DNA from: a virus
Length of the DNA stretch: 64,000 nucleotides
Virus record (IMG/VR): IMGVR_UViG_3300037961_005793
Span: 16,884 to 80,883 of that record
Strand: one strand, 5' to 3'
The notes beneath the pieces are model-generated. The model was given only the letters and a program-made list of their open reading frames with translations. It had not been told where the DNA came from and did no database searches. Positions 5,296 through 38,682 of this stretch are shown here, piece by piece; within the stretch, counting starts at the first letter, position 1; the number at the start of each line of letters is the position of its first letter. A program made the translations under genes and the position numbers.

Positions 5296-5449
5296 TATTT
5301 TCATCAAACGACTCTGGTGCTTCCACGAGCTGCTGCTCTTCTACAGGTTCACGCACAGTTGCCCAAGCCGACTGCCTGACATGAGAAGATTTGCGTCGAC
5401 CATCGTGACGACGACCATCTCTACGACGTGGCTCTCTGCGACGGTTCAT
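5285..5449 (-). CDS. 54-aa protein with Arg-rich N-terminus and acidic C-terminus
   Basis: MNRRREPRRRDGRRHDGRRK...; read manually; TACACT upstream. Confidence 0.5.
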   Translation of the reverse strand: MNRRREPRRRDGRRHDGRRKSSHVRQSAWATVREPVEEQQLVEAPESFDENITL

Positions 5450-5476
5450 AACTAAGGTCTTTTCCTAAGTGTAGGC

Positions 5477-9863: not shown

Positions 9864-10735
9864 TACGTCAAAAACATGTTTTCGGTATGAATGGTATCTG
9901 ATCCTTCGTATAAAGCAGGGGAGTATTTAACATCAAGATGTCTAACCAAACCGCACGGGTGAATCTGAACTGAATCACCGCATTTAATTAACGGCACAAC
10001 TCGACGGTGCTCTTGGTTCGGTTTCAAACCCTCAAAAGCTAAACCCATAGAACTTCGGTCAGCGATCGGCCAGTTACGTTTGCCGACCACACGGTGACTC
10101 AGTTGAGGATGACAGCTTTCACTTTTTATATATTTCTCAGCATCTTCCTGGTCGAGAATCATCAAACCTGCGTAAGGGTTGCCTAGAGATGTGAAGCCAA
10201 TAAAGTTCTTGTCGTTTGGCGTCAGTATCGTCCCGCATTCGTAAGGGATATCACCCCACACATCGGGGGTAAGTCCATAAAGGTCCCACTTTTTGTAATT
10301 ATCAAAAGGTATATCTAGATCTCTGTACTCTTCATATCGGCAAAAACCAGGCTCAAGATTTAAAGGTTTGAGCACATCTTTGTAATCACGCCAGTAGACG
10401 AACTGTTTAGAGCCAAAGAGCATATCATTTTCTGAATACATATAAAAGTCATATTTTTTATCTCTTACTGCTTTTACAAAACTGGGTTTGTGAGCCCAAC
10501 AAAGTGCGAAGCCTGCGTAGGACTCATCTGCGACTGTGAAGCTAACCCTGTCGAGGTGAACATGACTTCCAACAATTAAAGAGAATTCGTCAAGATCATA
10601 CGAGTGCTCGTGATCGATGAAAAACTCTACATAAACCCTCAGAGGTAGAGTTTCGTAAGCTCGTAGGGCAGCAAGTGTCTTCTCGATACGAGCAAGGGGG
10701 TTGTGGGCAGTGACGGCTATATAAATAGATTGCAT
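9863..10735 (-). CDS. Putative GT-A fold glycosyltransferase
   Basis: YDFYMYSENDM (DxD-like) and NPYAGLMIL motifs. Confidence 0.55.
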   Translation of the reverse strand: MQSIYIAVTAHNPLARIEKTLAALRAYETLPLRVYVEFFIDHEHSYDLDEFSLIVGSHVHLDRVSFTVADESYAGFALCWAHKPSFVKAVRDKKYDFYMYSENDMLFGSKQFVYWRDYKDVLKPLNLEPGFCRYEEYRDLDIPFDNYKKWDLYGLTPDVWGDIPYECGTILTPNDKNFIGFTSLGNPYAGLMILDQEDAEKYIKSESCHPQLSHRVVGKRNWPIADRSSMGLAFEGLKPNQEHRRVVPLIKCGDSVQIHPCGLVRHLDVKYSPALYEGSDTIHTENMFLT

Positions 10736-12255
10736 CAGTACTCGACGTTGTAGTTGCCTCGTCTTTGGAGGTAGTTAATCAGATGCGTGTAAGCATCGAG
10801 CAAGTCATCGTGAGATGTTGCACCGACGTTCACGATCTGATCCATTAAAGCATCGAACTTACGGTATTTATTAAAGGTAACTTTTTTGTTTTCTAAAATT
10901 CCAAGGGTGCCTCTGAACCTGGCGATCTTGTCGCCCCTAAACCCTTTAACTTCGTGGATATTTAAGTTGCTTAACCCTCGCTCAACAAGAAGCACACGTT
11001 TTAAATCCGCCGCAAGTGACGCCTGATATGCAACTGCTTCAACTACAAGTGTGATTGTTGAGTAAGTCGGAAAATACTGATCACCTTGTAGCTCTAGGAT
11101 TCCCCATTCCACAAGCATGTCGCACAGCAAATCGATTTTTTCTAAGTTTCCAATCGACCTGACCTGATGAGAGTCGATAATGAAATATTTATCCTTTAGT
11201 CGTCCTCCTAGAACAAAAGCTGTGTAGTCAGAAGTCTCATTCTTACTAGCTGACAAGTCGATACCGACTGCAAGGGTGTCGAACTCAGTTTCAACTTCGC
11301 CTTTAACAAGAAGATCAGGTGAAAGAACAAGATCAGATGTCATCACCGGCTGTTGCTGATACTGGTAAGCAAACGCAACAGGATCTAATTCTTTTTGACC
11401 CATAAGGTAACTAACAGACCATTGCTCAGGCCAATAACTGACAGGTTCACCTTGTTTGTCGTACGTAAGGGCCTCCTGAGCCACCTGTTTCCAGCCTTTT
11501 TTAGGGATAAACATGGTCTTGTGGATATCCAAAGGATGGAATCTCGTGCCTAGACAAATCGAACGGCCACCCTCAAAAACAATCGGAGCGATAACTGACG
11601 ACCAGTTGTTATTCATCTCTTCCCGTACAGCGGGGTTTTTGATGTCAGAGCTTGATTTAATGGGGTCATCCACGATCACGAGGTGTGCCCTTTTCGAGGT
11701 AATAGATCCTCGAAGACCTGCTGCACGAAGTGTGAATTCTTCATCACCGATCCTGTCGATTCCGGCGTAGTCAAAGTCGATTGACCAACCGATGTCGCTC
11801 TGCATACCTGCTTTGAGCTTTACCTTTGGAAATATTTTTTTAAACGTGGATGAGTCGATGATCTGCTTGATGATTCGACTCTTGGGGATAGCAGTAGCGA
11901 TGTTGTAAGAACAATAGATAATCTGCAGAGGACGTTGTGCAGTTGTGTGCTTACCGATAACCCAAGCTGTAAATAGGTTAAGGACAGTCGATTTAGCCGA
12001 ACCTCGGGGGCTCAGAATATCAAGATTTGGCCCTGCGATATCTATTAGATATTTATTGCTGTCTCCTGTAATCAGTTCCTGATGCCACTCCAGCATATGC
12101 TTCGCTGGAGGTTTATCAAGAAGTGTACAGAATGTCAAAAAGTCATCCTGAGCACGATGAAAAACACTATCTATCGCAGAGTCATTACTATCGATAGCCC
12201 TTTGTGCTCGTGCTTTAAGAGCACGTCGATATGCGTAAGTTTCTCTACTAGGCAT
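10735..12255 (-). CDS. terL: Terminase large subunit
   Basis: Walker A PRGSAKST, Walker B VIVDDP, GTRFH, nuclease motifs GIDLS and HDDLLDA. Confidence 0.92.
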   Translation of the reverse strand: MPSRETYAYRRALKARAQRAIDSNDSAIDSVFHRAQDDFLTFCTLLDKPPAKHMLEWHQELITGDSNKYLIDIAGPNLDILSPRGSAKSTVLNLFTAWVIGKHTTAQRPLQIIYCSYNIATAIPKSRIIKQIIDSSTFKKIFPKVKLKAGMQSDIGWSIDFDYAGIDRIGDEEFTLRAAGLRGSITSKRAHLVIVDDPIKSSSDIKNPAVREEMNNNWSSVIAPIVFEGGRSICLGTRFHPLDIHKTMFIPKKGWKQVAQEALTYDKQGEPVSYWPEQWSVSYLMGQKELDPVAFAYQYQQQPVMTSDLVLSPDLLVKGEVETEFDTLAVGIDLSASKNETSDYTAFVLGGRLKDKYFIIDSHQVRSIGNLEKIDLLCDMLVEWGILELQGDQYFPTYSTITLVVEAVAYQASLAADLKRVLLVERGLSNLNIHEVKGFRGDKIARFRGTLGILENKKVTFNKYRKFDALMDQIVNVGATSHDDLLDAYTHLINYLQRRGNYNVEY

Positions 12256-20477: not shown

Positions 20478-20563
20478 TGCCTGAGGCGAGACTTGAACTC
20501 GCATGACCTTTGCAGGTCGAGGGATTTTAAGTCCCTTGTGTCTACCGATTCCACCACTCAGGC
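20478..20563 (-). tRNA. trnL: tRNA-Leu(UAA), intronless, no encoded CCA
   Basis: GCCTGAG/CTCAGGC acceptor stem, D-loop GG, anticodon arm AGGGA-CTTAAAA-TCCCT, long variable arm, GTTCAAG T-loop. Confidence 0.95.
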
Positions 20564-23899: not shown

Positions 23900-24226
23900 C
23901 TAATCTCTAAACCCTTCGTCATCTACGAACCACTTGCGCTTAGACGTAAACCACTCAGCAATAGAAGTTGGATCTTGCGGGCCAACTAAGTGATCTGTGG
24001 GGTCAGGATCGCCGATATCCATATCATCAAGAAATTGATCTAACCCTCCGGCAGCTTGGTCACCTCTGAGAGCTTCTCTCCTGGCCCTACGAAGCATCGA
24101 ATCGACACTGTGGTTGCTTTTCGCCCATTTTTGTATCCAAATCATGTCTGAAACTTGTACTTCCGCCCCGTTTGCTATTCGATTACAAATATATTCCGCC
24201 TTTTTCCGTACTTCAGTCGAAAGCAT
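23900..24226 (-). CDS. Conserved picocyanobacterial/cyanophage hypothetical protein
   Basis: MLST...IC.RIANG.EV...DMIW.QK.AK...LRRARR...LD.FL..MD.GDPDP. Confidence 0.8.
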   Translation of the reverse strand: MLSTEVRKKAEYICNRIANGAEVQVSDMIWIQKWAKSNHSVDSMLRRARREALRGDQAAGGLDQFLDDMDIGDPDPTDHLVGPQDPTSIAEWFTSKRKWFVDDEGFRD

Positions 24227-26761: not shown

Positions 26762-27097
26762 TTGAACAACTCCATGATGATTATCGAGATCTACAGGCAC
26801 CATGGCACATGGGCTTTCACTGATCCCTACAAAGGACTTGAAAACGAACCGTTTGTGGCGGGCATACCGGAAATCATCGACGAATTCATCGAAAAATTCA
26901 GTGACAAGACCCAAGAGACGCACCGAATCACCTTTTCTTCGTCTGATTTCCCTGGTTCACACGGGAAACTAACCAAAACAAACCCCGAACAAGGAGGTGC
27001 TTGGTACAAATACGGCAAAAAAGAAGGTTGGTTGTGTCCGGCCACGCTGCACTACTTCCCAGAACACCCTGAGGAGCTTTTCGTACGGTTTAGCTAG
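26762..27097 (+). CDS. DUF6717-like protein
   Basis: GTWAFTD..GL..EPFVAGIPEIID...GWLCPA. Confidence 0.7.
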   Translation: MNNSMMIIEIYRHHGTWAFTDPYKGLENEPFVAGIPEIIDEFIEKFSDKTQETHRITFSSSDFPGSHGKLTKTNPEQGGAWYKYGKKEGWLCPATLHYFPEHPEELFVRFS

Positions 27098-27351
27098 CCT
27101 GATTTTTTTTCAGGCCGCTGTTATTATATTGCTACCCTAGAACTTTTACCCCCAAAATACCTAGAAGATACCCAGACCCTTCTCGCCCACGCCGTCGTAT
27201 ATGTCAAATAAGTAAAAAAAGGCAACATTGCGGGGTGCCGGGGAGGGGGGATAAGTATACCTTATGGATAAATGTAGTAAGGGGTAGTGTGACTTGGTGG
27301 GGGAGTCTCCTCCTATCATTGTTTCAATTGGTGAACCACGGTGGGGTGGTG

Positions 27352-27360
27352 TGATACAAT
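27352..27360 (+). promoter_or_regulatory. Extended -10 promoter for the early region
   Basis: TG-A-TACAAT. Confidence 0.5.
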
Positions 27361-27366
27361 CGCGCA

Positions 27367-28170
27367 CGCGCACGCAGTTCCTCTTAGTTACAAGGAGCGA
27401 ACACAATGTGCCAATCACATCTCCGCACACCATTCTCACCAACGTCACCGGATCCGTGGTCTACTTAATGGTGTCGAAGGGAGAGCGAGGCATGAGACCT
27501 CAGCACCGGAGACAATCTTCGAACTGTCACCAGTTCTTGCCGAGTTCGGCACAATCCCGTAACTTGGTTCACAAGTCAGGCAACTGACCCACAATCCAAC
27601 CAGCTTTGTTCAGTCCTTCGGGACATGTAACTAAGGCAGAACCTCGACAATCGAATCAGGATTAGCTAAGGGCAAAGGAGTTCCTCCTCCCTGGTGTGGC
27701 AATTGCCTCGCTTTAGTTATCTCCTGCTCTTCTTAATAGTTATGTGCCAGGTGTGTAGGGATAGCCTGCACTGCCACACGTCCGGCGTTCCGGTGTGGAG
27801 GGTGAACAGTAATGTTCTGATCGGCGGAATCGTCCGAGCCCAGCAGCACAGTTTTTAGTTACCTTCCCCATACAGGCGTGGTGTCTCTGTACATCAGGCC
27901 CCAGGGGGAAAGCTTCCTATCCTCATTTTGCTTCAGACCATACAATTTAATACTTTTGACATCATTTTGTGCGCTTTATGCGCTCTTTTTTGTTTTTGCT
28001 GGGTAGGGTTGACTTATGTCTAAGGGTTTGCAGTCTTGTAGTACCCATAGATACAGCAGCTCTACCTCAGTTTATGTTGTGATCATCCGTGATCATGACC
28101 TTTTCTGGAGTTTATGAATCCTCCCATGAGCCTTTTCGGTTCATTGAAGGACTCTAATCCTTCACCAATT
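27367..28170 (+). ncRNA. Candidate large structured RNA or early leader
   Basis: No credible long ORF; more than 15 helices including UUCG and GNRA tetraloops and G-U pairs favouring the plus strand. Confidence 0.55.
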
Positions 28171-28190
28171 GTTCTACGTTCATTCCAAAC

Positions 28191-28526
28191 ATGCGTAAGA
28201 TCGAAACTCTCATGAACAAAGCCCTCATTAACAGCAAGAACTGGAAACTTGCAAACACTGAGGTTACTTTCGACCAAGAATCTGGTCACTCTCGTGTATA
28301 TCTACATGGCAACCACATTGCCACCCTTGGTGAAACCTTCCTCACAATTACAGACGCTGGGTATCAAACAAGGACCACAAAGTCACGACTAAATGCAATC
28401 ATCCGCACATTTTGTTTCGAGGGTGAGAGTATTTATCAGAAACGTGGCGAGTGGTTTGTGAAGAAGCAAACAGTAGATGGTAAAGACTTTGAGAACATTC
28501 CTTTTTACGGTACTTACACTTTCTGA
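28191..28526 (+). CDS. Early phage hypothetical protein
   Basis: MRKIE...VYLHGNHIA...TTKSRLNAI, a common phage early-gene pattern. Confidence 0.8.
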   Translation: MRKIETLMNKALINSKNWKLANTEVTFDQESGHSRVYLHGNHIATLGETFLTITDAGYQTRTTKSRLNAIIRTFCFEGESIYQKRGEWFVKKQTVDGKDFENIPFYGTYTF

Positions 28527-28531
28527 TAATC

Positions 28532-28861
28532 ATGTCATCTCTCACAATCAAGACAAACAATCATCCACGCCAGCTTATGTCTGGTCTCACGCTAGATCTG
28601 CATGTGGGTGAGAAGAAGGCTGTTGAGATTCGTCAGCAGTTTGATTACCTGAACGACGAAGAATTTGAGAACGAAGACTTCATAACTTACAAAGGTTATA
28701 CATATGCTATGTGTGACTTTATGCGAAACAATGATCATCCTGACAGCGAGTTTGCAAAGTGGGATGGGTATCACGCTGACTCTTATTTCAGCGGAGTTCT
28801 TCTCAAATATGTAGAAGATTCTGACTACAACGAAGTTATTCTTGCCACCTATTTTTCTTGA
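28532..28861 (+). CDS. Early phage hypothetical protein
   Basis: WDGY..DSYFSGVL motif. Confidence 0.75.
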   Translation: MSSLTIKTNNHPRQLMSGLTLDLHVGEKKAVEIRQQFDYLNDEEFENEDFITYKGYTYAMCDFMRNNDHPDSEFAKWDGYHADSYFSGVLLKYVEDSDYNEVILATYFS

Positions 28862-28863
28862 TC

Positions 28864-29046
28864 ATGGCTTCAACTTACATCACCAAAGCCCAGCGCAAAA
28901 TCTTGATCGACTCTTATATAGAGTGCGCTGACGAGATGGGTCTTGATGACCTGGATGAAACTCAAGCAAGACTTGAGAAGCTAAGCAACACAAAGCTCAT
29001 CGCAGAATGTGTTGCATTTGTGCCTGATTGCATGGAGGAAATTTGA
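28864..29046 (+). CDS. Small early protein
   Basis: TGATCATG-coupled ORF. Confidence 0.65.
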   Translation: MASTYITKAQRKILIDSYIECADEMGLDDLDETQARLEKLSNTKLIAECVAFVPDCMEEI

Positions 29047-29048
29047 TC

Positions 29049-29198
29049 ATGATTATTGAATTAAACAACGACGAGATCGAACTTCTTTATTACTGTCTGG
29101 AACAACAGGAGTATGAATTCAACTTTGACGAACAAACATTGTGTAATCAAATGATTTGTAAGTTTCAAACTGCTCAAGCAAACTCGACTGAATCATGA
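29049..29198 (+). CDS. 49-aa acidic early protein
   Basis: MIIELNNDEIELLYYCLEQ...; coupled at both ends; read manually. Confidence 0.65.
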   Translation: MIIELNNDEIELLYYCLEQQEYEFNFDEQTLCNQMICKFQTAQANSTES

Positions 29199-29407
29199 AC
29201 ATCCAACTGAACTACGATCAGATTCTGACTGTTACTCTTCCTGATGGTCAGACTGTCGAGATTGACGCTCGATCCCGTGCCGAAACTGACATTTATGTCA
29301 ACAATCCGCATGGTGATTGCTATGAGTCACTAAGCTTTGCAGAGTGGCAAGACGATCAACCTGATCCCTCTCTGTCTGCCACTGAACGTAACCCTAACCT
29401 CCGCTGA
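29195..29407 (+). CDS. Small early protein
   Basis: Coupled ORF. Confidence 0.65.
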   Translation: MNIQLNYDQILTVTLPDGQTVEIDARSRAETDIYVNNPHGDCYESLSFAEWQDDQPDPSLSATERNPNLR

Positions 29408-29409
29408 TC

Positions 29410-29694
29410 ATGACTCCTGAACAACGCAACCAGCTGATCAAGGACTACTGCTATGCAGCTGTGATGGATTTATCTGTCAACGAACTGTGCGAATTTGTCG
29501 TTGAGCTGATGATTGATGGCTTTGCTGAAACCTCAGATGCAGATCTGATCAAGCAAGTGAAAGCAAACTATCCCGAAGTTTTCGAGGACAATGATGATGA
29601 CGATGCTGATGTTGGCTCTGTTGTAATTAAATCTAAGCCTGCACCTGTTTCAAAATCTGCACCACCTTGGGCACCTAAAGGATTCAAGAATTGA
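29410..29694 (+). CDS. Small acidic early protein
   Basis: Coupled ORF. Confidence 0.65.
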   Translation: MTPEQRNQLIKDYCYAAVMDLSVNELCEFVVELMIDGFAETSDADLIKQVKANYPEVFEDNDDDDADVGSVVIKSKPAPVSKSAPPWAPKGFKN

Positions 29695-29954
29695 CCATGG
29701 ATTTACAACAACGTTACCAAGAGTATTTAAGTGACTTTGATCCCACGCCTCAGTATCTCTACGACGAACCTTATTCGCCGCTTGAGTATGAAGAATGGGT
29801 CGAAGAATCACACCCTGAGATGCTCACACAGTTGACTTATTCGCAACTGAATGATGCACACCATCAAACGTTAGTTGCTGATGCACACACTCCCATGTGG
29901 TGCAGATACTTCTACGCTTACCTGGAATTTATCACGGACAATGATCATGACTGA
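29691..29954 (+). CDS. Small acidic early protein
   Basis: Coupled ORF; likely ATG 29697. Confidence 0.6.
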   Translation: MTMDLQQRYQEYLSDFDPTPQYLYDEPYSPLEYEEWVEESHPEMLTQLTYSQLNDAHHQTLVADAHTPMWCRYFYAYLEFITDNDHD

Positions 29955-30171
29955 CAAGAATTCTCCGCTGACTGTGGATGAGATCAGCAAAGCTGCTGAT
30001 GAATTCTTTCCTCTCTTCAATGAGATTCTGACTCGTATGCCAGACGGTTCAAAGATCGAAGACACTCTCAAAGTTATGGAGAATGTCGCTCGTGTTGCAC
30101 AGCGCAATCGTGCTGAGGAACGTGAGAAGTTTGGCTTTAACAAACTGAACGGAGGTAATGCTGATGGCTAA
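29947..30171 (+). CDS. Small early protein
   Basis: MTDKNSPLT...EDTLKVME.VA...GF, cyanophage-type pattern. Confidence 0.7.
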   Translation: MTDKNSPLTVDEISKAADEFFPLFNEILTRMPDGSKIEDTLKVMENVARVAQRNRAEEREKFGFNKLNGGNADG

Positions 30172-30352
30172 GAGAATCAAACGCATCATTATCACTCGCA
30201 CGATTGTTTACGACCGTGTTGTATTTGATCAGAAGCAAGGTATCACCGACGACGAACAGTTTGTTCGATGGGTGAACGACGTTGCTGATGATGATTTCAA
30301 GTATCCATCTAATTTCACAGAAGACTTTTCACTTCAACAATCAAATGGCTAA
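30158..30352 (+). CDS. Small early protein
   Basis: Coupled ORF. Confidence 0.55.
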   Translation: MLMAKRIKRIIITRTIVYDRVVFDQKQGITDDEQFVRWVNDVADDDFKYPSNFTEDFSLQQSNG

Positions 30353-31037
30353 ACCAAACGGCTACGTTCTTCAGCGTGGTTTCTCTCCTATTGACGGGAA
30401 ACCTTTCGTGGTGATCATGACCATGAACAGCAACAATCGCAAGACCGGGAAGATGCTTCAGGTCTGGATTCTTAACGAGAGTGTGAATCCTGTGGAAGCT
30501 ATCGCAACAGGAGCAGACTACACAATCTGCGGAGATTGCCCACACCGCAAGCAATCTGACGGTTCACGCTCTTGTTATGTAAATGTGGGTCAGGCCCCAA
30601 ACAGTATCTGGAAAGCTTACAAACGTGGTAGCTACGGCAACTTGTCCGACCTTGATCTGGCTGACATCAAAGGCAAGCGCATCAGGTGGGGAGCTTACGG
30701 CGATCCATCCATCATCGATCGCTACTTAGTTAAAGCACTCAATAAACATGCTGCTGGTCACACTGGTTACACACATCAGTGGAGACAACCATGGGCACAA
30801 TGGTGCAAAGGTTTGTTTCAAGCATCGTGTGATGGCATGGCTGACTACTTAGATGCAACAGCTCACGGCTGGAAAACATTTGCTGTGATCCCGCAAGGTG
30901 GTGAGGCATACAGTGGTAAACTCTGCCCTGCCACGGCTGACAACAGTCAGGCAACTTGTGCGACATGTAAGCTCTGCGATGGTGCCAAGACTGACATCTT
31001 CGTAGAGGCTCACGGGACTGGCGCTAAGTACGTCTAA
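30345..31037 (+). CDS. Cys-rich, probably Fe-S/metal-binding enzyme (gp88-like)
   Basis: N.KTG, CGDCPH...CYV, RWGAYGDP, GYTHQW and CPA...CATCKLC motifs. Confidence 0.7.
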   Translation: MAKPNGYVLQRGFSPIDGKPFVVIMTMNSNNRKTGKMLQVWILNESVNPVEAIATGADYTICGDCPHRKQSDGSRSCYVNVGQAPNSIWKAYKRGSYGNLSDLDLADIKGKRIRWGAYGDPSIIDRYLVKALNKHAAGHTGYTHQWRQPWAQWCKGLFQASCDGMADYLDATAHGWKTFAVIPQGGEAYSGKLCPATADNSQATCATCKLCDGAKTDIFVEAHGTGAKYV

Positions 31038-31085
31038 CCGTAGATCTCATTACTCTCTTCTCTCTAGTATTAACTTGGTTCAATT

Positions 31086-31280
31086 ATGGGAATGATCATG
31101 GATCTTTCTACAACAGAAGCTAACTTTCTTGCACATGCTGTTGAAGTTTGGTCGGGTGTCCAGCCAGGAGAGAAGGACGGCAAGCTAACCTACATCGACA
31201 CGAAGGACGAGAAGATCTTGCTCACCAGTGACGAGATCGAATCCCTTTACAAACGACTCGAATTCAGGAGCTGCACTTGA
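31086..31280 (+). CDS. Small early protein
   Basis: ORF in co-directional cluster. Confidence 0.55.
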   Translation: MGMIMDLSTTEANFLAHAVEVWSGVQPGEKDGKLTYIDTKDEKILLTSDEIESLYKRLEFRSCT

Positions 31281-31489
31281 AACGCAACCACAGAGCTAAG
31301 ACGGTTCTTTATATCCAGAAGCGCAGTTTTAACTCAGCAGGCAGGGTTCAAATTGAAACTGTCGCTGAGTGCAAAACTAACAAGGAGGCCATCAAACTTA
31401 TCAACAAATTCTCCTCTGAGGATCCCAACGCAAAGTATTACACAATGCACCGTCCTTGTGACGCGTACATAAATCAAACCAACACCTAA
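31277..31489 (+). CDS. Small early protein
   Basis: Coupled ORF. Confidence 0.55.
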   Translation: MKRNHRAKTVLYIQKRSFNSAGRVQIETVAECKTNKEAIKLINKFSSEDPNAKYYTMHRPCDAYINQTNT

Positions 31490-31495
31490 TTTCAA

Positions 31496-31774
31496 ATGGC
31501 TAAAACTTACAAACTTCCGATGTCTCGTGAAGACTGGCAGTGTTACTTAGACACACCGCAAGAAGTTGTTGATCTGATCAACACCAGCTGCCAGCGAGCA
31601 CTCAAAGCATCACAAGATCCGCACACAGGTCTACGCCGTGTTTACATGGTTCTGAATGACTTCGTGGAGTTCGGTCTGCGAGACACAGAGTGTGACCACG
31701 TTGCTGTTGCTGTGGTTAACGCACACTTCAAAGATCAACCTGACGTCAACAGGTATTCAGTTGGTTTCGTTTGA
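31496..31774 (+). CDS. Small early protein
   Basis: FGLRDTE motif. Confidence 0.65.
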   Translation: MAKTYKLPMSREDWQCYLDTPQEVVDLINTSCQRALKASQDPHTGLRRVYMVLNDFVEFGLRDTECDHVAVAVVNAHFKDQPDVNRYSVGFV

Positions 31775-31784
31775 ACATCATCAC

Positions 31785-31814
31785 TTGACACCATCTGCAT
31801 TTTGCTTTTATATT
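31785..31814 (+). promoter_or_regulatory. Sigma70-type promoter
   Basis: TTGACA-N18-TATATT in intergenic DNA. Confidence 0.65.
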
Positions 31815-31845
31815 GCCAACGTTGGCACAATCCCATCAAAACAAC

Positions 31846-31962
31846 ATGACCTTACGCTCCTGGCGCATCAGTGAGAACAACTTCGTGACGACTGACATCT
31901 ACAAGTCACCACGCTTGCGTCACACTCTCGCTCGTTTCATTGCACGTTTGCTCCGTATCTAA
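31846..31962 (+). CDS. 38-aa basic microprotein
   Basis: MTLRSWRISENNF...ARLLRI; read manually; TAATCATG-coupled to the next gene. Confidence 0.55.
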   Translation: MTLRSWRISENNFVTTDIYKSPRLRHTLARFIARLLRI

Positions 31963-31964
31963 TC

Positions 31965-32141
31965 ATGAAACTAACTAAGTACGACATCAACTTGCTCATT
32001 CAGAAACTTGATGATGATCTTGATGAACTGAGGAAAGGTAACTGGTGGTCAGTTGCTGCTGCTCAGGCACAGATCGTTGAGATTCAAAGCAAGTTGTACA
32101 ACCATCTCGTGGAAGTTTTGGAGGAGGATCCAGGCGAATGA
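31965..32141 (+). CDS. 58-aa helical protein
   Basis: MKLTKYDINLLIQKL...; coupled at both ends; read manually. Confidence 0.65.
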   Translation: MKLTKYDINLLIQKLDDDLDELRKGNWWSVAAAQAQIVEIQSKLYNHLVEVLEEDPGE

Positions 32142-32548
32142 CAACTAAGATCGACGAGAAACTCTCAAATGCAATTCTCACAGGGTGTGATCTCAAGGCC
32201 AGCAAGTACCGAGTGGATCACTTTAAGTTCCCTTGGCTACCTGAGACTGAGATACAATCTCGCATCGACATCTACTTCCAAGACAAACGCATCGTTGAGA
32301 TAACTGACGAACACGTCAGGATGAATCACCAGGGCTTTAACACTCAAGCTTTTGCATCTCGCTTGCGGTGCATTTTCAAAACGGCTTGTGACAATCTCCA
32401 CGACATCCAATATGGAAACGGGAGGATCTATGTTAGAACACCGAGTGATGTAGAAGGTATTCAATACAACTTCTACTTACTTGATCAAGATCCAAACTGG
32501 GTCACAGTCAGACGCCCTTCACACAAAGAATCTAATGTCAACGACTGA
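32138..32548 (+). CDS. Hypothetical protein
   Basis: Coupled ORF; possible distant paralog of 28191-28526 (GFNTQAFASRL vs GYQTRTTKSRL). Confidence 0.65.
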   Translation: MTTKIDEKLSNAILTGCDLKASKYRVDHFKFPWLPETEIQSRIDIYFQDKRIVEITDEHVRMNHQGFNTQAFASRLRCIFKTACDNLHDIQYGNGRIYVRTPSDVEGIQYNFYLLDQDPNWVTVRRPSHKESNVND

Positions 32549-32738
32549 TGAGGTTTACACAGAGGCAATTCTGTTCATGCTCGATAGCATCGCGCCTACC
32601 GAACGCTTGAACATCAAGAATGATCTGAAGCTTAAGCTCGAACGAGCATACGAACTACAGCCTTCAACCCTTGCTGGACTGAAGGCTCTAGAACGTATTC
32701 TTTTGGCGTCAGACTTCTCACGCCAGCTCAGTGGTTAA
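32535..32738 (+). CDS. Hypothetical protein
   Basis: In-frame ATG 32535. Confidence 0.5.
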   Translation: MSTTDEVYTEAILFMLDSIAPTERLNIKNDLKLKLERAYELQPSTLAGLKALERILLASDFSRQLSG

Positions 32739-32885
32739 CTTCACGTAAGGGACACCGCGATAGACGAGAACTTGTTCTTTGACCACAGCGTTCTCCATCA
32801 TCATGCGGTCGAGTTGGTTTTTCACTTCAGCGCGATGGGCACGAGCCTTGTTGCGGTTGAGGTGAAGCAGGAAAGCAGCGTTCAT
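32718..32885 (-). CDS. 55-aa DUF4278-like protein
   Basis: MNAAFLLHLNRNKARAHRAEVKNQLDRMMMENAVVKEQVLVYRGVPYVKLTTELA; LxYRGVxY motif; missing from ORF track. Confidence 0.7.
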   Translation of the reverse strand: MNAAFLLHLNRNKARAHRAEVKNQLDRMMMENAVVKEQVLVYRGVPYVKLTTELA

Positions 32886-32899
32886 GACGTTTGCAAACT

Positions 32900-32913
32900 G
32901 TAGTAATTGCTAC
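32900..32913. promoter_or_regulatory. NtcA-type box overlapping the putative -10 of the DUF4278-like gene
   Basis: GTA-GTAATTGC-TAC; minus-strand TG-T-TAAAGT overlaps it. Confidence 0.5.
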
Positions 32914-32957
32914 TTTAACACTGCACATTCTTCTTTGTAGTTCACTCTGTAACACAA

Positions 32958-33176
32958 ATGAACAACCAAAACCTATCACCATTTTTCACGTTTGGTCTCG
33001 CGGGACTGGCAGGATTTGTCCTTTGCATGGCAACCACGCGGATCATGGTTGAAGTAGCAAACTCGAAAGCTCGACAAGAATGTCGGGTCAACCATCATCG
33101 CAGATACATTTACATGCACACTGTCGTCGGTGACACCTGGCACTGCGTACCTGCTCACTTCTTCCATCAAGAATGA
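32958..33176 (+). CDS. Small membrane-anchored protein
   Basis: N-terminal transmembrane segment, C...VGDTWHC. Confidence 0.65.
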   Translation: MNNQNLSPFFTFGLAGLAGFVLCMATTRIMVEVANSKARQECRVNHHRRYIYMHTVVGDTWHCVPAHFFHQE

Positions 33177-33502
33177 TGAAATTGTCTCAACTCATGCGAA
33201 TTGTTGACGAGCACAAACTTACACCGTCTGCGATGCGTTTGTTCTTTCTTGTCTGTGAAGAATATCCTGTGGGTGTTGACCAGTCTCAAGTTGCTAAATA
33301 CCCTCCCACGCTCGGTATGTCTGCATCTTCAATTGGACGACACCTTCGCAAGTTCGAAGAGCTGGGTTGGCTGAAACGGTCTCTCGTAGATAAGAAATCA
33401 TTTCAAATTGATCTAACTCATCGAGGTTTAACTCTGTGGCATCAATTCTCAGACTATAGTGTTCCCGAGATCACCCACGCTCACATAAATGATCCTGCCT
33501 GA
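33173..33502 (+). CDS. MarR-like winged-helix protein
   Basis: SASSIGRHLRKFEELGWL...LTHRG. Confidence 0.75.
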   Translation: MMKLSQLMRIVDEHKLTPSAMRLFFLVCEEYPVGVDQSQVAKYPPTLGMSASSIGRHLRKFEELGWLKRSLVDKKSFQIDLTHRGLTLWHQFSDYSVPEITHAHINDPA

Positions 33503-34007
33503 TTTCGAAATTGCTCGTATGTGTTTGGGCGGATTAGTAACTCCTTTTGACTCGACACTAATCAACCCGGCATCACTCGATGTTCGTCTGGGCGACAAGG
33601 TTTTACTCGAAGTCGAAGATCAAAGAAACTTCAGAGCATTTGATATCTCTATTTACAACCGAGACACACCCTTTTTACTTGATCCAGGAGAGTTTATTTT
33701 GGCTCACACTCTTGAAACTTTTAACGTCCCTGATGACGTAGCGGGTCAGTTTGCACTCAAAAGCTCAGTTGCGAGGAGCGGAATCGAACATTTGATGGCC
33801 GGTTATATAGATCCTGGATTTAACAATAGTGTTCTTACGCTTGAGTTAAAGAACGCAAGAAGAAGTCATCCAGTGTTCTTGTGGCCTGGGATGCGGATTG
33901 GTCAAATCATTTGGCAAAGAATGGCAGCGACACCGACAACAAGTTACCGAGAGTCAGGTAGGTACAACGGAGACAAGTCAGTCACAGCATCAAAAGGACT
34001 TCTATAG
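33489..34007 (+). CDS. dcd: dCTP deaminase
   Basis: NPASLDVRLG, KSSVARSG, GYIDPGF, LTLEL and GMRIGQ motifs. Confidence 0.92.
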   Translation: MILPDFEIARMCLGGLVTPFDSTLINPASLDVRLGDKVLLEVEDQRNFRAFDISIYNRDTPFLLDPGEFILAHTLETFNVPDDVAGQFALKSSVARSGIEHLMAGYIDPGFNNSVLTLELKNARRSHPVFLWPGMRIGQIIWQRMAATPTTSYRESGRYNGDKSVTASKGLL

Positions 34008-34183
34008 GAGTCTCGTGCGAACGACGGACGGTCTTGAGGTATTTAATAGACCTCAGCTTATTTAACTAACGTAAACAAACGTCAATCGATGGTAAACAAT
34101 CTCTTGTATAGAAAAGTTTTTTTATTAACACTTTTGAGTTTGGTATCTCATCACGGTATCCGTAGTTACATCCTGTAAAATGC

Positions 34184-34212
34184 TTGACACCAGCTAACTC
34201 CTGGCATACACT
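34184..34212 (+). promoter_or_regulatory. Sigma70-type promoter of the MoxR-VWA operon
   Basis: TTGACA-N17-TACACT. Confidence 0.75.
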
Positions 34213-34262
34213 GCTCTCAGTGACAAACCAAGTCACTCAAATGTACATCAACAGTCTTTTGT

Positions 34263-34676
34263 ATGAAACTCTCTGAACTCATCAACCGAGGTCACGACAC
34301 TGCTCTTAAGTGGAGCGAGTGCGACGAAGCATTGGTGGCCGTAAACGAAACTTTCGGTGAGCCCTACGAGTCAGCTCGCAAAGCTCTTCACAACGATCTT
34401 TTGGTTGCCACGTCGCGTGAGATTCCTCTCGATACTTTCAAAGGAGATAACAATCCGCTTCGCTTTGAAGACCTCAAAGTGCTTGTGGTTGTAAAACCTT
34501 CGCTCGTACCCGCACCAGATAAGAAACTCGAAAACATCGACACAAGAATCGAAAGGCTCGAACAAGAGTTGAAACTCGCTCGAACCGAGCGCAAGTCGAT
34601 CATCGAGAAGCTCAAGATCAAAGATCATGAGTTTGTTATCAGTCAAATCAGCACACAATTCCGCCACATCAAATGA
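34263..34676 (+). CDS. Hypothetical coiled-coil protein
   Basis: First gene after the promoter. Confidence 0.7.
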   Translation: MKLSELINRGHDTALKWSECDEALVAVNETFGEPYESARKALHNDLLVATSREIPLDTFKGDNNPLRFEDLKVLVVVKPSLVPAPDKKLENIDTRIERLEQELKLARTERKSIIEKLKIKDHEFVISQISTQFRHIK

Positions 34677-35881
34677 ACCAAGATCAAGTTTTCATTCTTC
34701 ACTGCTCGATCAGCGCAAGTGTTCGGCAGAGTGTACAGATTGCTTTCGAAGACTACAAACTTCCTCAGGATGTTGTAGAGACACTTCGGGAAGCTAACTC
34801 AATCTCGATTCGACCCAACCTTTCTCAAGCACTTAAGAAATCACTTGATGAGCTTCGGCTCATGCAAAGATATCTTTACGACCGATGCACTATTCACCAC
34901 GGTGATGTTCACTTTCTCCACGCTGATTATTTCGACGAAGCAAAGCAACGCATCGAAGAAATCAAGGAGCATGCATCAACTTCTAATGCCAAACTTCGTG
35001 AAGCGTGGGCTGAAGAACTAGAGAAGTGGAAACAAACAGTTGATAACTTCTTCTCTCCTTTATTTACAGACGAAGAACAGTTAGCGTTGGTAAGAGAAGC
35101 GTATCTACGCATCTTCCCGACACAGAAAGAATACAGTAATCCTATTTCTGTAAACGTCGTTGGTCCTTACCCAGCTGTTATTGAACGTTGTGATGACCCG
35201 CAAGATGTTCAACAGATTATCGCCAACGAAGCTTCGATAAATACTGAGCAGGTTCTCAAAGCCGCCCGAGAGGGAGCAGTTGATTCGAGTCTGGGTAAAA
35301 TCGCAGAGCTTCTGGACGATTTGGATGCACGCCCTGCAAACAAAGTAGGAGAGCGAGTGCTTAGCGATAACCCTAAGAAGCGGGGTACGTGGCAAATAAT
35401 CGCACAAGAGATATCTCTTGCTGCTAAACACAATCCAATGCTCGTGGACATGGCGAAGCTTTGTGAAGACCTTCTCAAAGTTGGAGAACTTATGCGCGAT
35501 CCGTCGTCTGGTTCAGTCAGAGCTGCTGCGTTTCAACGTTATACAGATGTCAGGCAAGACATCGCAGATGAAGCTAAGAACCTTATGCTCAAGGCTTCGT
35601 CATCTAAGGGTCTTGAACAACTTCAAAAATCCGTTGCTTTGACTGGAACTTACCAGTCACTGATTGGAGACCTCGCTGGTTGTCAGACAGAAGAAGAGTT
35701 AACTCTTCTGAAAGATAAGATTGACACAGAAACATCTATCTACAAACACCGTGCGAAACATCTTTCGAGGCTTCTTCAGAAGGTTGAGGAACGAATGGCT
35801 TTATCTGACGCTATCGCCGACGCTACTGTTTCTCTACAGGAAGCCATCGACGAAAACAAATCGTTCGAGGTAGATTTCTGA
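34673..35881 (+). CDS. Helical protein, DUF3150-like candidate
   Basis: 402 aa all-helical pattern; adjacent to MoxR/VWA. Confidence 0.55.
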   Translation: MNQDQVFILHCSISASVRQSVQIAFEDYKLPQDVVETLREANSISIRPNLSQALKKSLDELRLMQRYLYDRCTIHHGDVHFLHADYFDEAKQRIEEIKEHASTSNAKLREAWAEELEKWKQTVDNFFSPLFTDEEQLALVREAYLRIFPTQKEYSNPISVNVVGPYPAVIERCDDPQDVQQIIANEASINTEQVLKAAREGAVDSSLGKIAELLDDLDARPANKVGERVLSDNPKKRGTWQIIAQEISLAAKHNPMLVDMAKLCEDLLKVGELMRDPSSGSVRAAAFQRYTDVRQDIADEAKNLMLKASSSKGLEQLQKSVALTGTYQSLIGDLAGCQTEEELTLLKDKIDTETSIYKHRAKHLSRLLQKVEERMALSDAIADATVSLQEAIDENKSFEVDF

Positions 35882-35902
35882 GTCGACTTAGCTAAGTCGA
35901 CT
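35881..35902. repeat. Perfect 22-bp palindrome
   Basis: AGTCGACTTAGCTAAGTCGACT. Confidence 0.9.
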
Positions 35903-35938
35903 AAGCTCACCTGAAACTAATCACCCTTCATCAATCAA

Positions 35939-37144
35939 ATGAACAACACTTTGTTTACCAACTTCCAGAGCTTTCGTGCCTCACTGAACGGATCGTTCCT
36001 TGACAGATCAGATGTTATCGACGGTCTACTGACAAGCCTCATAACTAAACAGAATGCATTTTTGTTTGGTCCGCCAGGAACAGGTAAGTCTGAGCTGGTT
36101 CGTGCAATTACTGGTGGCTTCGACGGATCAAAGTATTTCGGGTATTTGCTGAGCCCAACCACAGATCCATCAGAACTGTATGGTCCTGTCGCTGTCAGCA
36201 AACTTCTCAAAGACGAGTACACCCGCGATGTTTCTGGTTATCTGCCAGATTGCAACGTTGCTTTTCTTGATGAGTTGTTCAGAGGTTCTTCAGCTGTCTT
36301 AAATTCCCTGCTGCAGATCCTGAACGAAAGAACATTTAATAACGGCAAGCAAGCTATCGACACTGAGATACAGTCGATCGTCGCTGCGACTAACTCGTTC
36401 CCAACTGAAGAAGCACTTCAGGCATTTTGTGATCGCTTCTTGTTTCGTCCAACAATTACTGGGTTGAAATCACCTACACATAAACGAACGCTCATGCGTT
36501 GGGCGGTGGCTCAGGACAACGAAAATAGTCGCCCTGAAGTTCAGTCAACTTTGACTTACAAAGATCTGGTTGAGCTTCAGAAACAAGCTGCGAAAACAAC
36601 TGTGCCTGATGCTTTCATCGATCAGTTTGCAGAAATCCTCGACATGTTGGAGTCACGAGGTATCTCAGTGTCTGATCGTCGACGAGTTCAAATTCTTTCT
36701 TTTATGAAAGGTTGGGCTGTCGTTCAGGGTGAGACAGAGGTCCACGCTGCCATGCTTCATCAGACCTTAAAACATATTATTTACACCAACCCTGACGAAA
36801 TTGAAGACATCAATGAGGTCGTTAAACAAGTTGTTCCAACTGCGGAAGAGTTTATGGCTGGTGTTAAAAGAGCAGCTCAAAATACCATGCGTAGATTCGA
36901 ATCGACTAAACAATCGATCAACGACAGAACTGCCAGTGTCGGTGATTTAAACCGAGCAGTCACAGAGTTCGGAGACATGCTTCGCGAGTTAAAGTTACTG
37001 AACCAAAAAGCAGAAGAAGAGTTAGATAACGGCAACCTTAAATTCACCGCAGCTGCACGCCTTAAGTTCACCAAAATTATTCGTGAACTTGACGTCAATA
37101 TCAGCACCATCACCACCACCATCTCACGTTTCAAAAACGATTGA
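35939..37144 (+). CDS. MoxR-family AAA+ ATPase (RavA-like)
   Basis: GPPGTGKS, TDPSELYGP, AFLDE, LNSLL.ILNER and DRF motifs. Confidence 0.9.
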   Translation: MNNTLFTNFQSFRASLNGSFLDRSDVIDGLLTSLITKQNAFLFGPPGTGKSELVRAITGGFDGSKYFGYLLSPTTDPSELYGPVAVSKLLKDEYTRDVSGYLPDCNVAFLDELFRGSSAVLNSLLQILNERTFNNGKQAIDTEIQSIVAATNSFPTEEALQAFCDRFLFRPTITGLKSPTHKRTLMRWAVAQDNENSRPEVQSTLTYKDLVELQKQAAKTTVPDAFIDQFAEILDMLESRGISVSDRRRVQILSFMKGWAVVQGETEVHAAMLHQTLKHIIYTNPDEIEDINEVVKQVVPTAEEFMAGVKRAAQNTMRRFESTKQSINDRTASVGDLNRAVTEFGDMLRELKLLNQKAEEELDNGNLKFTAAARLKFTKIIRELDVNISTITTTISRFKND

Positions 37145-38682
37145 ACATGCAAAACGAAACTATTCGCCTCAACACTGAGCCTCCTCTTGTTCTGAAAGTC
37201 GGGGCCATGACTGATTTTCTTTGGCCCTCTTTTGTTCGTGAGATGAAACCTCGCGTTCAATATCTGGCTGATCGGTTTGACATCAAACGTCTCTCACGTT
37301 TTGGAAAAGAACTGTTCGAGTTCCTCTACATGGGTGGAGACGTTGATCCTGTAGTGAGTCTCGACGCGGTAGAAGAATATTTTCGGGCTAAACAAGATGG
37401 ACAAAGCGTTGAGTACCCACGCGGGTACAAACCTGAAAATGCACTGTGGCATTTGATTCTGGAGGATGTAATGAACAGTCCTGTGTATCACACAATGCAA
37501 CGACACTGCCTTGGTGATCACTTCAACTCAGGTAACAACGCAGTCAATATATTGAATGAGCTTGGTCAAGTAGTAGAAAATATGCTTGGCGAAGACACGG
37601 TTCTTACAGATGCTTTGGCTGAAAAAGGAGAGCAGCTGGAGCAGATTCGCTCTCAGTTCGTTGACGCTATGCAACAGGGTGACAGCAAGTCTGCTGCAGA
37701 GTTGAGAGCAAAAGGCAAGCAAATCGGTGAAGAAATGGAGGAGATTCTCAACGCTCTTCACAAAGGCAAGCAGGCAAGTATCCAGAAGGGTATCGAGAAA
37801 GCTCACGAGGATGCTGTTGACCAGCAAAACGCAATGTCGAAGCTGGCAGGCAATGGTGATGGTTTTGGTCATAAGCTCGACAACATCGATGACAAGATAA
37901 AACTTGCCAAGAAACTTCAAAGCAGCCGATTCTTACAGCTGTTTATCGATCGTCTTGGCGCTTTTAAAGCTGCTTGGACTCAACGCAAAAGGGAAAGAAC
38001 AGTCAAATCTAATTATTCAAATATTGTTGGGGCTGAACTTTCCAACAACATCACTAAAACATTTCCGTCTGAGCTTGCGTTAGCAGCCACGGATGAAGGT
38101 AAGGCTCTTTTCGCCCTGAAGTATGCACAGAAAACAATGCTGTGCAAAGACTTCGAAGCGAAGAGTAAAAATGTCCAGCAAGGTCCTGTCGTTATGTACG
38201 TTGACGTAAGTGGATCTATGCACGGTGATGACGAACTGTGGTCTAAAGCTCTCACTTACTGCGTGGTTGAAGAATGCACTAACAACAATCGTCCAATTTA
38301 CGTGCGTCTTTTCAACAGTACTATTGCAGACTCAATCGATATCAAACCAAATACAAAAGACAGCGACGACCTTTTGAAATTTATTATGAAATGGGGCACA
38401 TCAGGTGGCACTTCTTTCAATCGAGTGATGGTAGACGCTCGACAACTGAAACCAGAGATGACCAAAGCCGACATTCTCATCATTACCGATGGGGAGTGCG
38501 AGGTCGAAGACAGACATGTGCGAGAGTTCAACAAATTTGTGGACTCTCATAAAATCGATGTGCGTGGTTTTTGTATTGGTAAGAAGTCAGAGTCGATGGA
38601 AAAGTTCTGTGATGAAGTCGTTCTTGTAAACACTTCTAACGACACAGAGATGTCTGAGATATTTCAGAAGGCAATCGGATAA
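37141..38682 (+). CDS. VWA-domain protein (ViaA-like)
   Basis: MIDAS DVSGS, GGTSF and IITDG motifs. Confidence 0.88.
   Translation: MNMQNETIRLNTEPPLVLKVGAMTDFLWPSFVREMKPRVQYLADRFDIKRLSRFGKELFEFLYMGGDVDPVVSLDAVEEYFRAKQDGQSVEYPRGYKPENALWHLILEDVMNSPVYHTMQRHCLGDHFNSGNNAVNILNELGQVVENMLGEDTVLTDALAEKGEQLEQIRSQFVDAMQQGDSKSAAELRAKGKQIGEEMEEILNALHKGKQASIQKGIEKAHEDAVDQQNAMSKLAGNGDGFGHKLDNIDDKIKLAKKLQSSRFLQLFIDRLGAFKAAWTQRKRERTVKSNYSNIVGAELSNNITKTFPSELALAATDEGKALFALKYAQKTMLCKDFEAKSKNVQQGPVVMYVDVSGSMHGDDELWSKALTYCVVEECTNNNRPIYVRLFNSTIADSIDIKPNTKDSDDLLKFIMKWGTSGGTSFNRVMVDARQLKPEMTKADILIITDGECEVEDRHVREFNKFVDSHKIDVRGFCIGKKSESMEKFCDEVVLVNTSNDTEMSEIFQKAIG

Follow-up and report, generated by a model that had tools for sequence, protein, structure and literature searches.

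A conserved GTA-N8-TAC box between divergent early genes of a putative cyanophage, within a cluster of possibly mixed origin

Cyanophage genomes carry Pho boxes upstream of pstS and phoA. Regulators of the MarR family are habitually autoregulated from divergent operators, examples being MarR at marO and MepR at its own operator. For nitrogen, Sullivan et al. reported in 2010 between 1 and 16 intergenic GTA-N8-TAC 'NtcA sites' per genome in 16 T4-like cyanophages and proposed that these phages exploit the host nitrogen-stress response (PMC3037559). GTA-N8-TAC sites upstream of viral focA/nirA were annotated in a 2020 study. A direct test of NtcA binding to phage DNA is not evident in the literature searched, as judged from titles and abstract openings. 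Here, we examine four copies of GTA-N8-TAC in a stretch of viral DNA of 64,000 nucleotides (the window), which comprises bases 16884-80883 of a virus record 80,883 bp long (IMGVR_UViG_3300037961_005793). The cluster may be of mixed origin, a reading to which we assign a probability of roughly 0.4: only one box, site 3, would be a selected operator, site 1 would be the arm of a hairpin, and sites 2 and 4 would be chance matches or weak sites.

28041-28054, no strand assigned: site 1, GTACCCATAGATAC, GTA-N8-TAC.
31040-31053, no strand assigned: site 2, GTAGATCTCATTAC, preceded by the stop codon of ORF 30282-31037 and followed by the ATG at 31086.
32900-32913, no strand assigned: site 3, GTAGTAATTGCTAC, of the pattern GTA-N4-TTG-Y-TAC.
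34156-34169, no strand assigned: site 4, GTATCCGTAGTTAC, GTA-N8-TAC.

An earlier sequence-only reading had placed the boxes at 28041, 31040, 32900 and 34156 and called all of them intergenic. Both statements hold, since 4/4 are found at these positions and 4/4 fall outside the gene boundaries, which are self-trained gene calls throughout. That reading had also presented the boxes as a nitrogen-related analogue of Pho control; the idea is not new, intergenic NtcA sites having been described in cyanophages in 2010 (PMC3037559). For comparison, relatives were gathered by searches with MoxR and with the MarR-like protein P0003 introduced below, yielding 30 viral loci and five metagenome loci. The early region is collinear with the window in L002 (~88% nucleotide identity), L004 (~71%) and L005 (~65%), and L033-L037 are closer; the window, L002, L004 and L005 are referred to below as the four diverged genomes.

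Site 3 is kept in 9/9 genomes, which contain six distinct spacer variants. The GTA, the TTG at positions 8-10 and the TAC are invariant, and the variation falls at box positions 4-7 and 11. The other boxes fare less well: close relatives lack sites 2 and 4, and site 1 is kept, but within a hairpin. Site 3 lies within a 72-bp divergent gap, with leftward P0001 on one side and rightward P0002-P0003 on the other. The features of this region are as follows.

32718-32885, minus strand: P0001, 55 aa, a conserved protein divergent from site 3.
32912-32917, minus strand: -10-like hexamer of the predicted P0001 promoter, sharing bases with the TAC of site 3.
32937-32944, plus strand: invariant GTAGTTCA block, a fixed 23 nt after site 3 in 9/9 genomes, with no indel between them.
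32958-33176, plus strand: P0002, 72 aa, with a hydrophobic N-terminus.
33173-33502, plus strand: P0003, 109 aa, a MarR-like winged-helix protein according to weak profile matches and a structure model.

The leftward hexamer fits TAN3T in all four diverged genomes: the window and L002 share TAAAGT, L004 has TATAGT and L005 has TAAGGT. The proposal that one of the boxes overlaps a -10 is therefore borne out at site 3, for a promoter that is itself predicted. Because the box overlaps the leftward -10, a dimer bound at site 3 should block the P0001 promoter. Site 3 would be a selected protein-binding operator in the 72-bp divergent control region, and a dimer bound there would switch off P0001. 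On the rightward side, the GTAGTTCA block includes TAGTTC, 24 nt from site 3, which resembles TAN3T but is without the final T. It is possible that TAGTTC acts as an atypical -10, which would set the seventh base of site 3 near -44.

The same arrangement might also be explained without any dedicated regulator, an alternative that we regard as rather unlikely. All four boxes would then be chance matches, and site 3 would be kept as a set of ordinary promoter parts, with its TAC in the leftward -10, its TTG as a -35-like element and its GTA where the leftward transcript begins. Consistent with this, the TAC overlaps a TAN3T hexamer in each of the four diverged genomes, and invariance extends in any case to approximately half of the columns on the right of the box. 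Harder to accommodate is the GTA half, which has no obvious promoter role and yet is invariant in 9/9 genomes. Moreover, at the local conservation rate, the invariance of all six GTA/TAC columns has a probability of only ~0.02.

P0001 is taken to be a real gene because it is a conserved protein (65-96% identity in five aligned relatives, L002, L004, L005, L034 and L035) whose differences favour the third codon position, for example 11/5/25 against L004. Its structure model, a helix followed by a beta-hairpin, has a pLDDT of 82. The N-terminal helix is basic (LNRNKARAHR...), and the C-terminal beta-hairpin bears an invariant YRGVPY. P0001 might itself bind DNA. Searches for its family gave no PHROG match, a DUF4278 match at merely E = 0.14, a bZIP-like cluster lead at 0.87, under the threshold of 0.9, and no Foldseek match at E <= 0.001.

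P0003 matches Pfam MarR_2 at E = 4e-4, under the curated cut-off, and a PHROG of transcriptional regulators at E = 2e-3. The structure model (pLDDT 74.8) has MepR, MarR, OhrR and SlyA as its top Foldseek matches, with E values from 4e-4 and TM scores of 0.55-0.63. Both P0003 and P0001 occur in genomes bearing site 3 and in 0/25 of the distant MoxR loci; a profile scan for remoter relatives of P0003 returned just the same three viral contigs. The likeliest protein to bind site 3 would be the phage's own MarR-like P0003, forming an autoregulatory switch, with host NtcA as a close second. The slight lean towards P0003 arises because gene, box and a clade-specific peak at spacer 8 (described below) coincide, and because divergent autoregulated operators are a habit of the MarR family.

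Site 1 has a different explanation. It is kept in 4/4 genomes (the window, L002, L041 and L043) with flanks that are 96% identical, and it forms part of a stem.

28001-28067, plus strand: long hairpin of 67 nt, the 3' arm of which includes site 1, identified by folding and covariation.

Folding of 28000-28195 (196 nt) gives -63.8 kcal/mol, with z = -4.5. The window and L002 differ at two positions inside site 1, 28047 and 28049. The pair 28021-28049 changes from U-A to C-G in L002, which is compensatory, the changes at pairs 28022-28048 and 28007-28061 are wobble-compatible, and no pair is disrupted by any change among the four genomes. Site 1 would accordingly owe its conservation to its place in one arm of a hairpin, acting as RNA or DNA; Rfam has no match for this hairpin. 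A terminator-like hairpin at 27969-27983, followed by a T run, precedes this hairpin and another at 28076-28099, both of which are strong and lie before the first early ORF. The region 27969-28099 is 96% identical to L002, compared with ~88% elsewhere.

Site 2 is evolutionarily labile. L033 and L034, whose flanks are 99% and 96% identical, retain it, but in L002 and L036, two of the four covering relatives, TAC has become TTA despite ~90% flank identity; counting the window, 3/5 genomes retain the site. A potential promoter element lies nearby.

31065-31070, plus strand: TAGTAT, a predicted -10-like hexamer 11 nt past site 2, conserved in L002.

Were TAGTAT a -10, site 2 would come to lie near -31, a repression-type position.

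Site 4 is likewise variable, being kept in L033, L034, L035 and L004 and gone in L002, L036 and L005 (3/7 relatives), so that 5/8 genomes have it when the window is counted. Its surroundings include the following.

34132-34144, plus strand: TTTTGAGTTTGGT block shortly before site 4, unchanged across the window, L002, L004 and L005.
34184-34212, plus strand: sigma-70-type promoter TTGACA-17-TACACT, serving the operon 34263-38682.

The operon consists of two unknown ORFs, MoxR and VWA. One box was said to lie just upstream of the -35 of the MoxR operon, and site 4 does end 14 nt before TTGACA-17-TACACT; with the start predicted from this promoter, the centre of the site would be at approximately -56.5. 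As the promoter is a near-consensus sigma-70 sequence, it should need no activator. Both TTTTGAGTTTGGT and CTTGACA are invariant in the four diverged genomes while the adjoining site 4 varies. Sites 2 and 4 would be matches that arose by chance, and no more than weak secondary sites if they act at all.

Two observations on the MoxR-operon promoter stand apart from the question of the boxes. First, TTTTGAGTTTGGT and a second block upstream of the promoter, AAAAGTTTT (34100-34125), are invariant across relatives of ~65-88% identity and are better kept than site 4; they may be an UP-like element or a site for another factor, and TTTTGAGTTTGGT has a single exact copy in the window. Second, in L005, where site 4 is lost, a perfect 6-2-6 palindrome, GTAGCACCTGCTAC, is found at 5440-5453, just past the -10 of the same promoter. 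Its presence in the intergenic region of the lost site may reflect either box turnover or coincidence.

How unusual is the cluster? The sequence-only reading had estimated early non-coding DNA at about 1.5 kb; by the gene calls used here, it amounts to 1170 bp (within 27449-34262). With 23 GTA and 15 TAC triplets, 0.29 boxes are expected and four are observed (Poisson P = 2.5e-4). When all 64 palindromic triplet pairs are compared at spacer 8 in this DNA, GTA-N8-TAC comes first. Among 704 pattern-by-spacer controls it alone reaches four copies, and GTA...TAC at other spacers has zero or one copy. Furthermore, 4/5 of the genome's intergenic boxes fall in the early part, which represents 11% of intergenic DNA (P = 6e-4). 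The local excess and its first place among the controls argue against the absence of any regulator.

The local P values are nevertheless optimistic because region and motif were picked after looking, and this in turn favours the explanation without a regulator. Beyond the early region, no excess is seen: the window as a whole holds 15 boxes, against 8.6 +/- 3.2 in shuffles, of which 2/100 reach 15; the genome has 20, and the reversed control pattern occurs 19 times in it; and in all intergenic DNA the box ranks only 14/64. Similarly, an unbiased search of early intergenic DNA for words of 4-7 letters returned no word stronger than the box; the best, ACAATC (5 against 0.51 expected) and TAGTTA (4 against 0.34), are not significant over 4096 words. 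The lack of any other strong motif, together with the finding that L002 has just two boxes in clearly non-coding early DNA, is also in keeping with chance.

Among the relatives, the close clade has a sharp peak at spacer 8, with seven boxes against 0-2 at other spacers; most of these boxes are orthologous to sites 1, 3 and 4. Across the 25 distant loci, whose loosely called intergenic DNA adds up to 61.6 kb, there are 20 boxes, ranking 21/64 against a mean of 17.4, and there is no spacer-8 peak. In Synechococcus phage S-EIVl, the best named match of this phage's terminase, intergenic DNA contains five boxes (rank 12/64), again without excess. The excess claimed by the sequence-only reading consequently stands locally, and fails genome-wide, in the 25 distant relatives and in S-EIVl.

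Two candidate boxes in relatives were set aside. One, at 3549 in L002, is included in the clade count, but ORF 30158-30352 covers the orthologous position in the window, and the box is not taken as intergenic here. The other, at 23912 in S-EIVl (GTAACAATTGTTAC), resembles site 3 but is inside what looks like a leftward ORF missing from the annotation, and the genes around it have no homology to P0001-P0003. The S-EIVl gap concerned (L031 23794-24018), annotated as intergenic, holds an uninterrupted leftward ORF of ~70 aa (MSSSVTREQQ...), perhaps an unannotated gene.

Another alternative is that host NtcA, as a dimer activated by 2-oxoglutarate, occupies at least two of the boxes and thereby adjusts early transcription of the phage to nitrogen status. 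We regard this as unlikely. At site 3, NtcA would repress P0001 and serve as a class II-like activator of P0002-P0003, and at sites 2 and 4 it would be a modulator or repressor. The local excess of the exact NtcA consensus (4 against 0.29, at the top of 704 controls) speaks for such a scheme; the host is probably a marine picocyanobacterium, and there is precedent in the T4-like cyanophages (PMC3037559). The new perfect palindrome in L005, which lies in the same intergenic region as the lost site 4, can be counted on the same side.

The likeness of the boxes to NtcA sites was judged by features described for published logos. In the reported NtcA-DNA structure, R191 makes contact with a guanine located 3 bp from the dyad (GTAnC-N4-GnTAC); such a guanine is present in ~50% of Anabaena NtcA promoters, and the 'perfect' box is GTATCAGCTGATAC (PMC11850224). 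The corresponding guanine is present in 5/8 early half-sites, including both halves of sites 1 and 4, compared with 4/32 in the genome's other 16 boxes (Fisher P = 0.008). Tested against background, C5/G10 in the early boxes has a binomial P of 0.016. Sites 1 and 4 each carry C5 and G10, and site 2 has neither; at site 3, the GTA, G10 and TAC are invariant. The guanine is a supportive trait of NtcA sites and not a defining one. The C5/G10 enrichment fits the R191-guanine contact and the 'perfect' box and is a further difficulty for the explanation by chance. At site 1, the C5/G10 bases double as G-C pairs of the stem.

Other features do not point to NtcA. The TGTA/TACA flanks (3/8 early half-sites, 10/32 others) and T4/A11 (2/8 and 7/32) are not enriched. 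The logo of the top 40 Anabaena sites (Picossi) is described as T4, C5, A10 and A11, with A and not G at position 10 (PMC3898017). C5 is the sole feature common to this description and that of the R191 structure. At site 3, the additional TT that is invariant (positions 8-9) does not belong to the NtcA box, and the MarR-like P0003, encoded beside the sole conserved box, is an equally good candidate binder.

Geometry adds little. Sites of NtcA-induced Synechocystis genes cluster at -41 to -44, and repressive sites are spread between -69 and +83, with a small rise near -30 (PMC5714215). The observation that none of the boxes is followed by a TAN3T hexamer at the canonical distance of 22 nt is confirmed: the nearest to site 1 is TATGTT, 18 nt downstream, the distance at site 2 is 11 nt, and site 4 is centred near -56.5. 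Site 3, 24 nt from TAGTTC, comes nearest to the canonical activator layout (-41.5 with TAN3T) but is borderline, on a transcription start that is predicted. For the NtcA alternative, the possible position of the seventh base near -44 and the location of sites 2 and 4 within the reported repressive range are favourable, and the missing 22-nt gap, the missing final T of TAGTTC and the self-sufficient promoter beside site 4 are unfavourable. Position is weakly informative, however, because all of the sites fit the broad repressive range.

Several points weigh against a mixed origin with a single operator bound by P0003. Site 3 is hardly better conserved than its surroundings, with 9/14 columns invariant compared with 25/48 downstream in seven genomes. 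The link between P0003 and the box would come from adjacency and from the habits of the MarR family, and the transcription starts are those of predicted promoters. The C5/G10 enrichment lends modest support to an NtcA-type reader. Finally, three incidental boxes in 1.2 kb are improbable (P of at least three, given 0.29, ~0.003); therefore, more than one box may be functional.

As for the four-box nitrogen regulon put forward by the sequence-only reading, conservation does not support it: close relatives have lost sites 2 and 4, and a hairpin accounts for site 1. In addition, no box shows the -41.5/TAN3T layout, and neither the whole genome, the 25 distant relatives nor S-EIVl shows an excess. 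The first, second and last of these points also count against NtcA at any two boxes. The local excess and C5/G10 would keep the regulon alive, as an unlikely proposition. A more elaborate version appears quite improbable: host NtcA loaded with 2-oxoglutarate would silence P0001 from site 3 and turn on P0002, P0003 and the downstream nucleotide-metabolism and MoxR-VWA genes, with weaker, fast-evolving boxes at neighbouring early promoters.

What kind of phage carries these boxes bears on the choice of regulator. The gene set in the window is that of a tailed phage (TerL, family A DNA polymerase, D5-type primase/helicase, ThyX, dCTP deaminase, lysozyme and the MoxR-VWA pair). Two features lie outside the early region.

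10735-12255, minus strand: large terminase (TerL), 506 aa.
20478-20563, minus strand: tRNA-Leu (anticodon TAA), the sole Rfam or ARAGORN match in the window.

The top named match of TerL is Synechococcus phage S-EIVl, at 44.7% identity, and the same phage is the top named match of the primase. The first early ORF (28191-28526) has a Kyanoviridae Gp96 domain and matches 395 phage records, 381 of which are from Synechococcus, Prochlorococcus or 'Cyanophage'. DNA of the phage is present in marine, estuary and ballast-water metagenomes. Because of the S-EIVl matches, the cyanophage-confined Gp96-like gene and the marine occurrence, a marine picocyanobacterial host, and hence one with NtcA, is plausible but unproven. 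A fibre-like DUF7483 protein has matches in Pelagibacter, Roseobacter and Methylophilales phages as well as in Synechococcus phages, and megablast of window positions 27000-37000 against cultured phages gave no match. That the host is itself deduced from such matches counts against NtcA as regulator, as does the absence of any nitrogen-metabolism gene near the boxes in a protein-family annotation of the window. RNA-type runs (X15-X17 and X20) yield only short contigs from relatives that are 90-99% alike, from which starts, strands and levels are not obtainable.

Some further observations concern the same genes and region. The Gp96-like family (phrog_554), nearly restricted to Synechococcus and Prochlorococcus phages, has two early paralogues here, 28191-28526 and 32138-32548, the second matching weakly. 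A near-consensus promoter, TTGACA-18-TATATT (11/12 matches), is found at 31785-31814, in the 38-bp gap before ORF 31813-31962/31965-32141, and has no GTA-N8-TAC. The TerL gene of S-EIVl (L040 14080-16620) is 2541 bp long, and the 506-aa TerL aligns to it in two pieces; the S-EIVl gene may hold an insertion, e.g., an intein or an extra domain.

The identity of the protein at site 3 determines what the locus would mean. If NtcA acts there, S-EIVl-like cyanophages would read the carbon/nitrogen status of the host as infection starts. Binding by NtcA would carry the sensing of host nitrogen status beyond the T4-like cyanomyophages, into an S-EIVl-like marine lineage that is uncultured and not related to them. 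The locus would in that case also offer a compact, testable switch, a 72-bp region with two divergent promoters and one box, for a type of control over phage genes that has been predicted since 2010. If the binder is the phage MarR-like protein, the locus would be an ordinary phage-encoded early switch. Either way, counting intergenic GTA-N8-TAC, the criterion of published cyanophage annotations, appears to over-call, since 3/4 boxes here fail conservation or are otherwise explained.

Compared with known systems, the locus has something in common with each. Similar to MarR-family operators, a small winged-helix MarR-like gene lies beside a short palindrome in a divergent gap, and the palindrome overlaps a -10 (of a predicted promoter). 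Unlike them, P0003 has 109 aa instead of the typical ~140 aa, its Pfam score is under the cut-off, the half-sites of the palindrome are just the outer 3 bp, and binding is a prediction. The resemblance to cyanophage Pho boxes would lie in the use of a host nutrient-stress regulator at a phage promoter. Pho boxes serve host-derived nutrient-acquisition genes; the neighbours here are unknown early genes, a MarR-like regulator, a dCTP deaminase and the MoxR-VWA operon.

The sites of T4-like cyanomyophages are the closest counterpart: in both cases GTA-N8-TAC is intergenic, and can be read as tapping the host NtcA/2-oxoglutarate response by prediction (PMC3037559). The present phage differs in belonging to an S-EIVl-like lineage, in the confinement of its boxes to the early region and in having no 2-oxoglutarate-related genes nearby. 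A further difference is that the conservation of the boxes was tested here, and it mostly fails. Relative to cyanobacterial NtcA promoters, the differences are that no TAN3T is found at 22 nt, that starts are predicted and that the sites are phage-borne predictions. The likenesses are the core GTA-N8-TAC and the high-affinity GTAnC-N4-GnTAC form of sites 1 and 4 (PMC5714215, PMC3898017, PMC11850224). To these may be added the predicted placement of site 3 near -44 of a promoter without a -35, and of sites 2 and 4 in the repressive range (PMC5714215).

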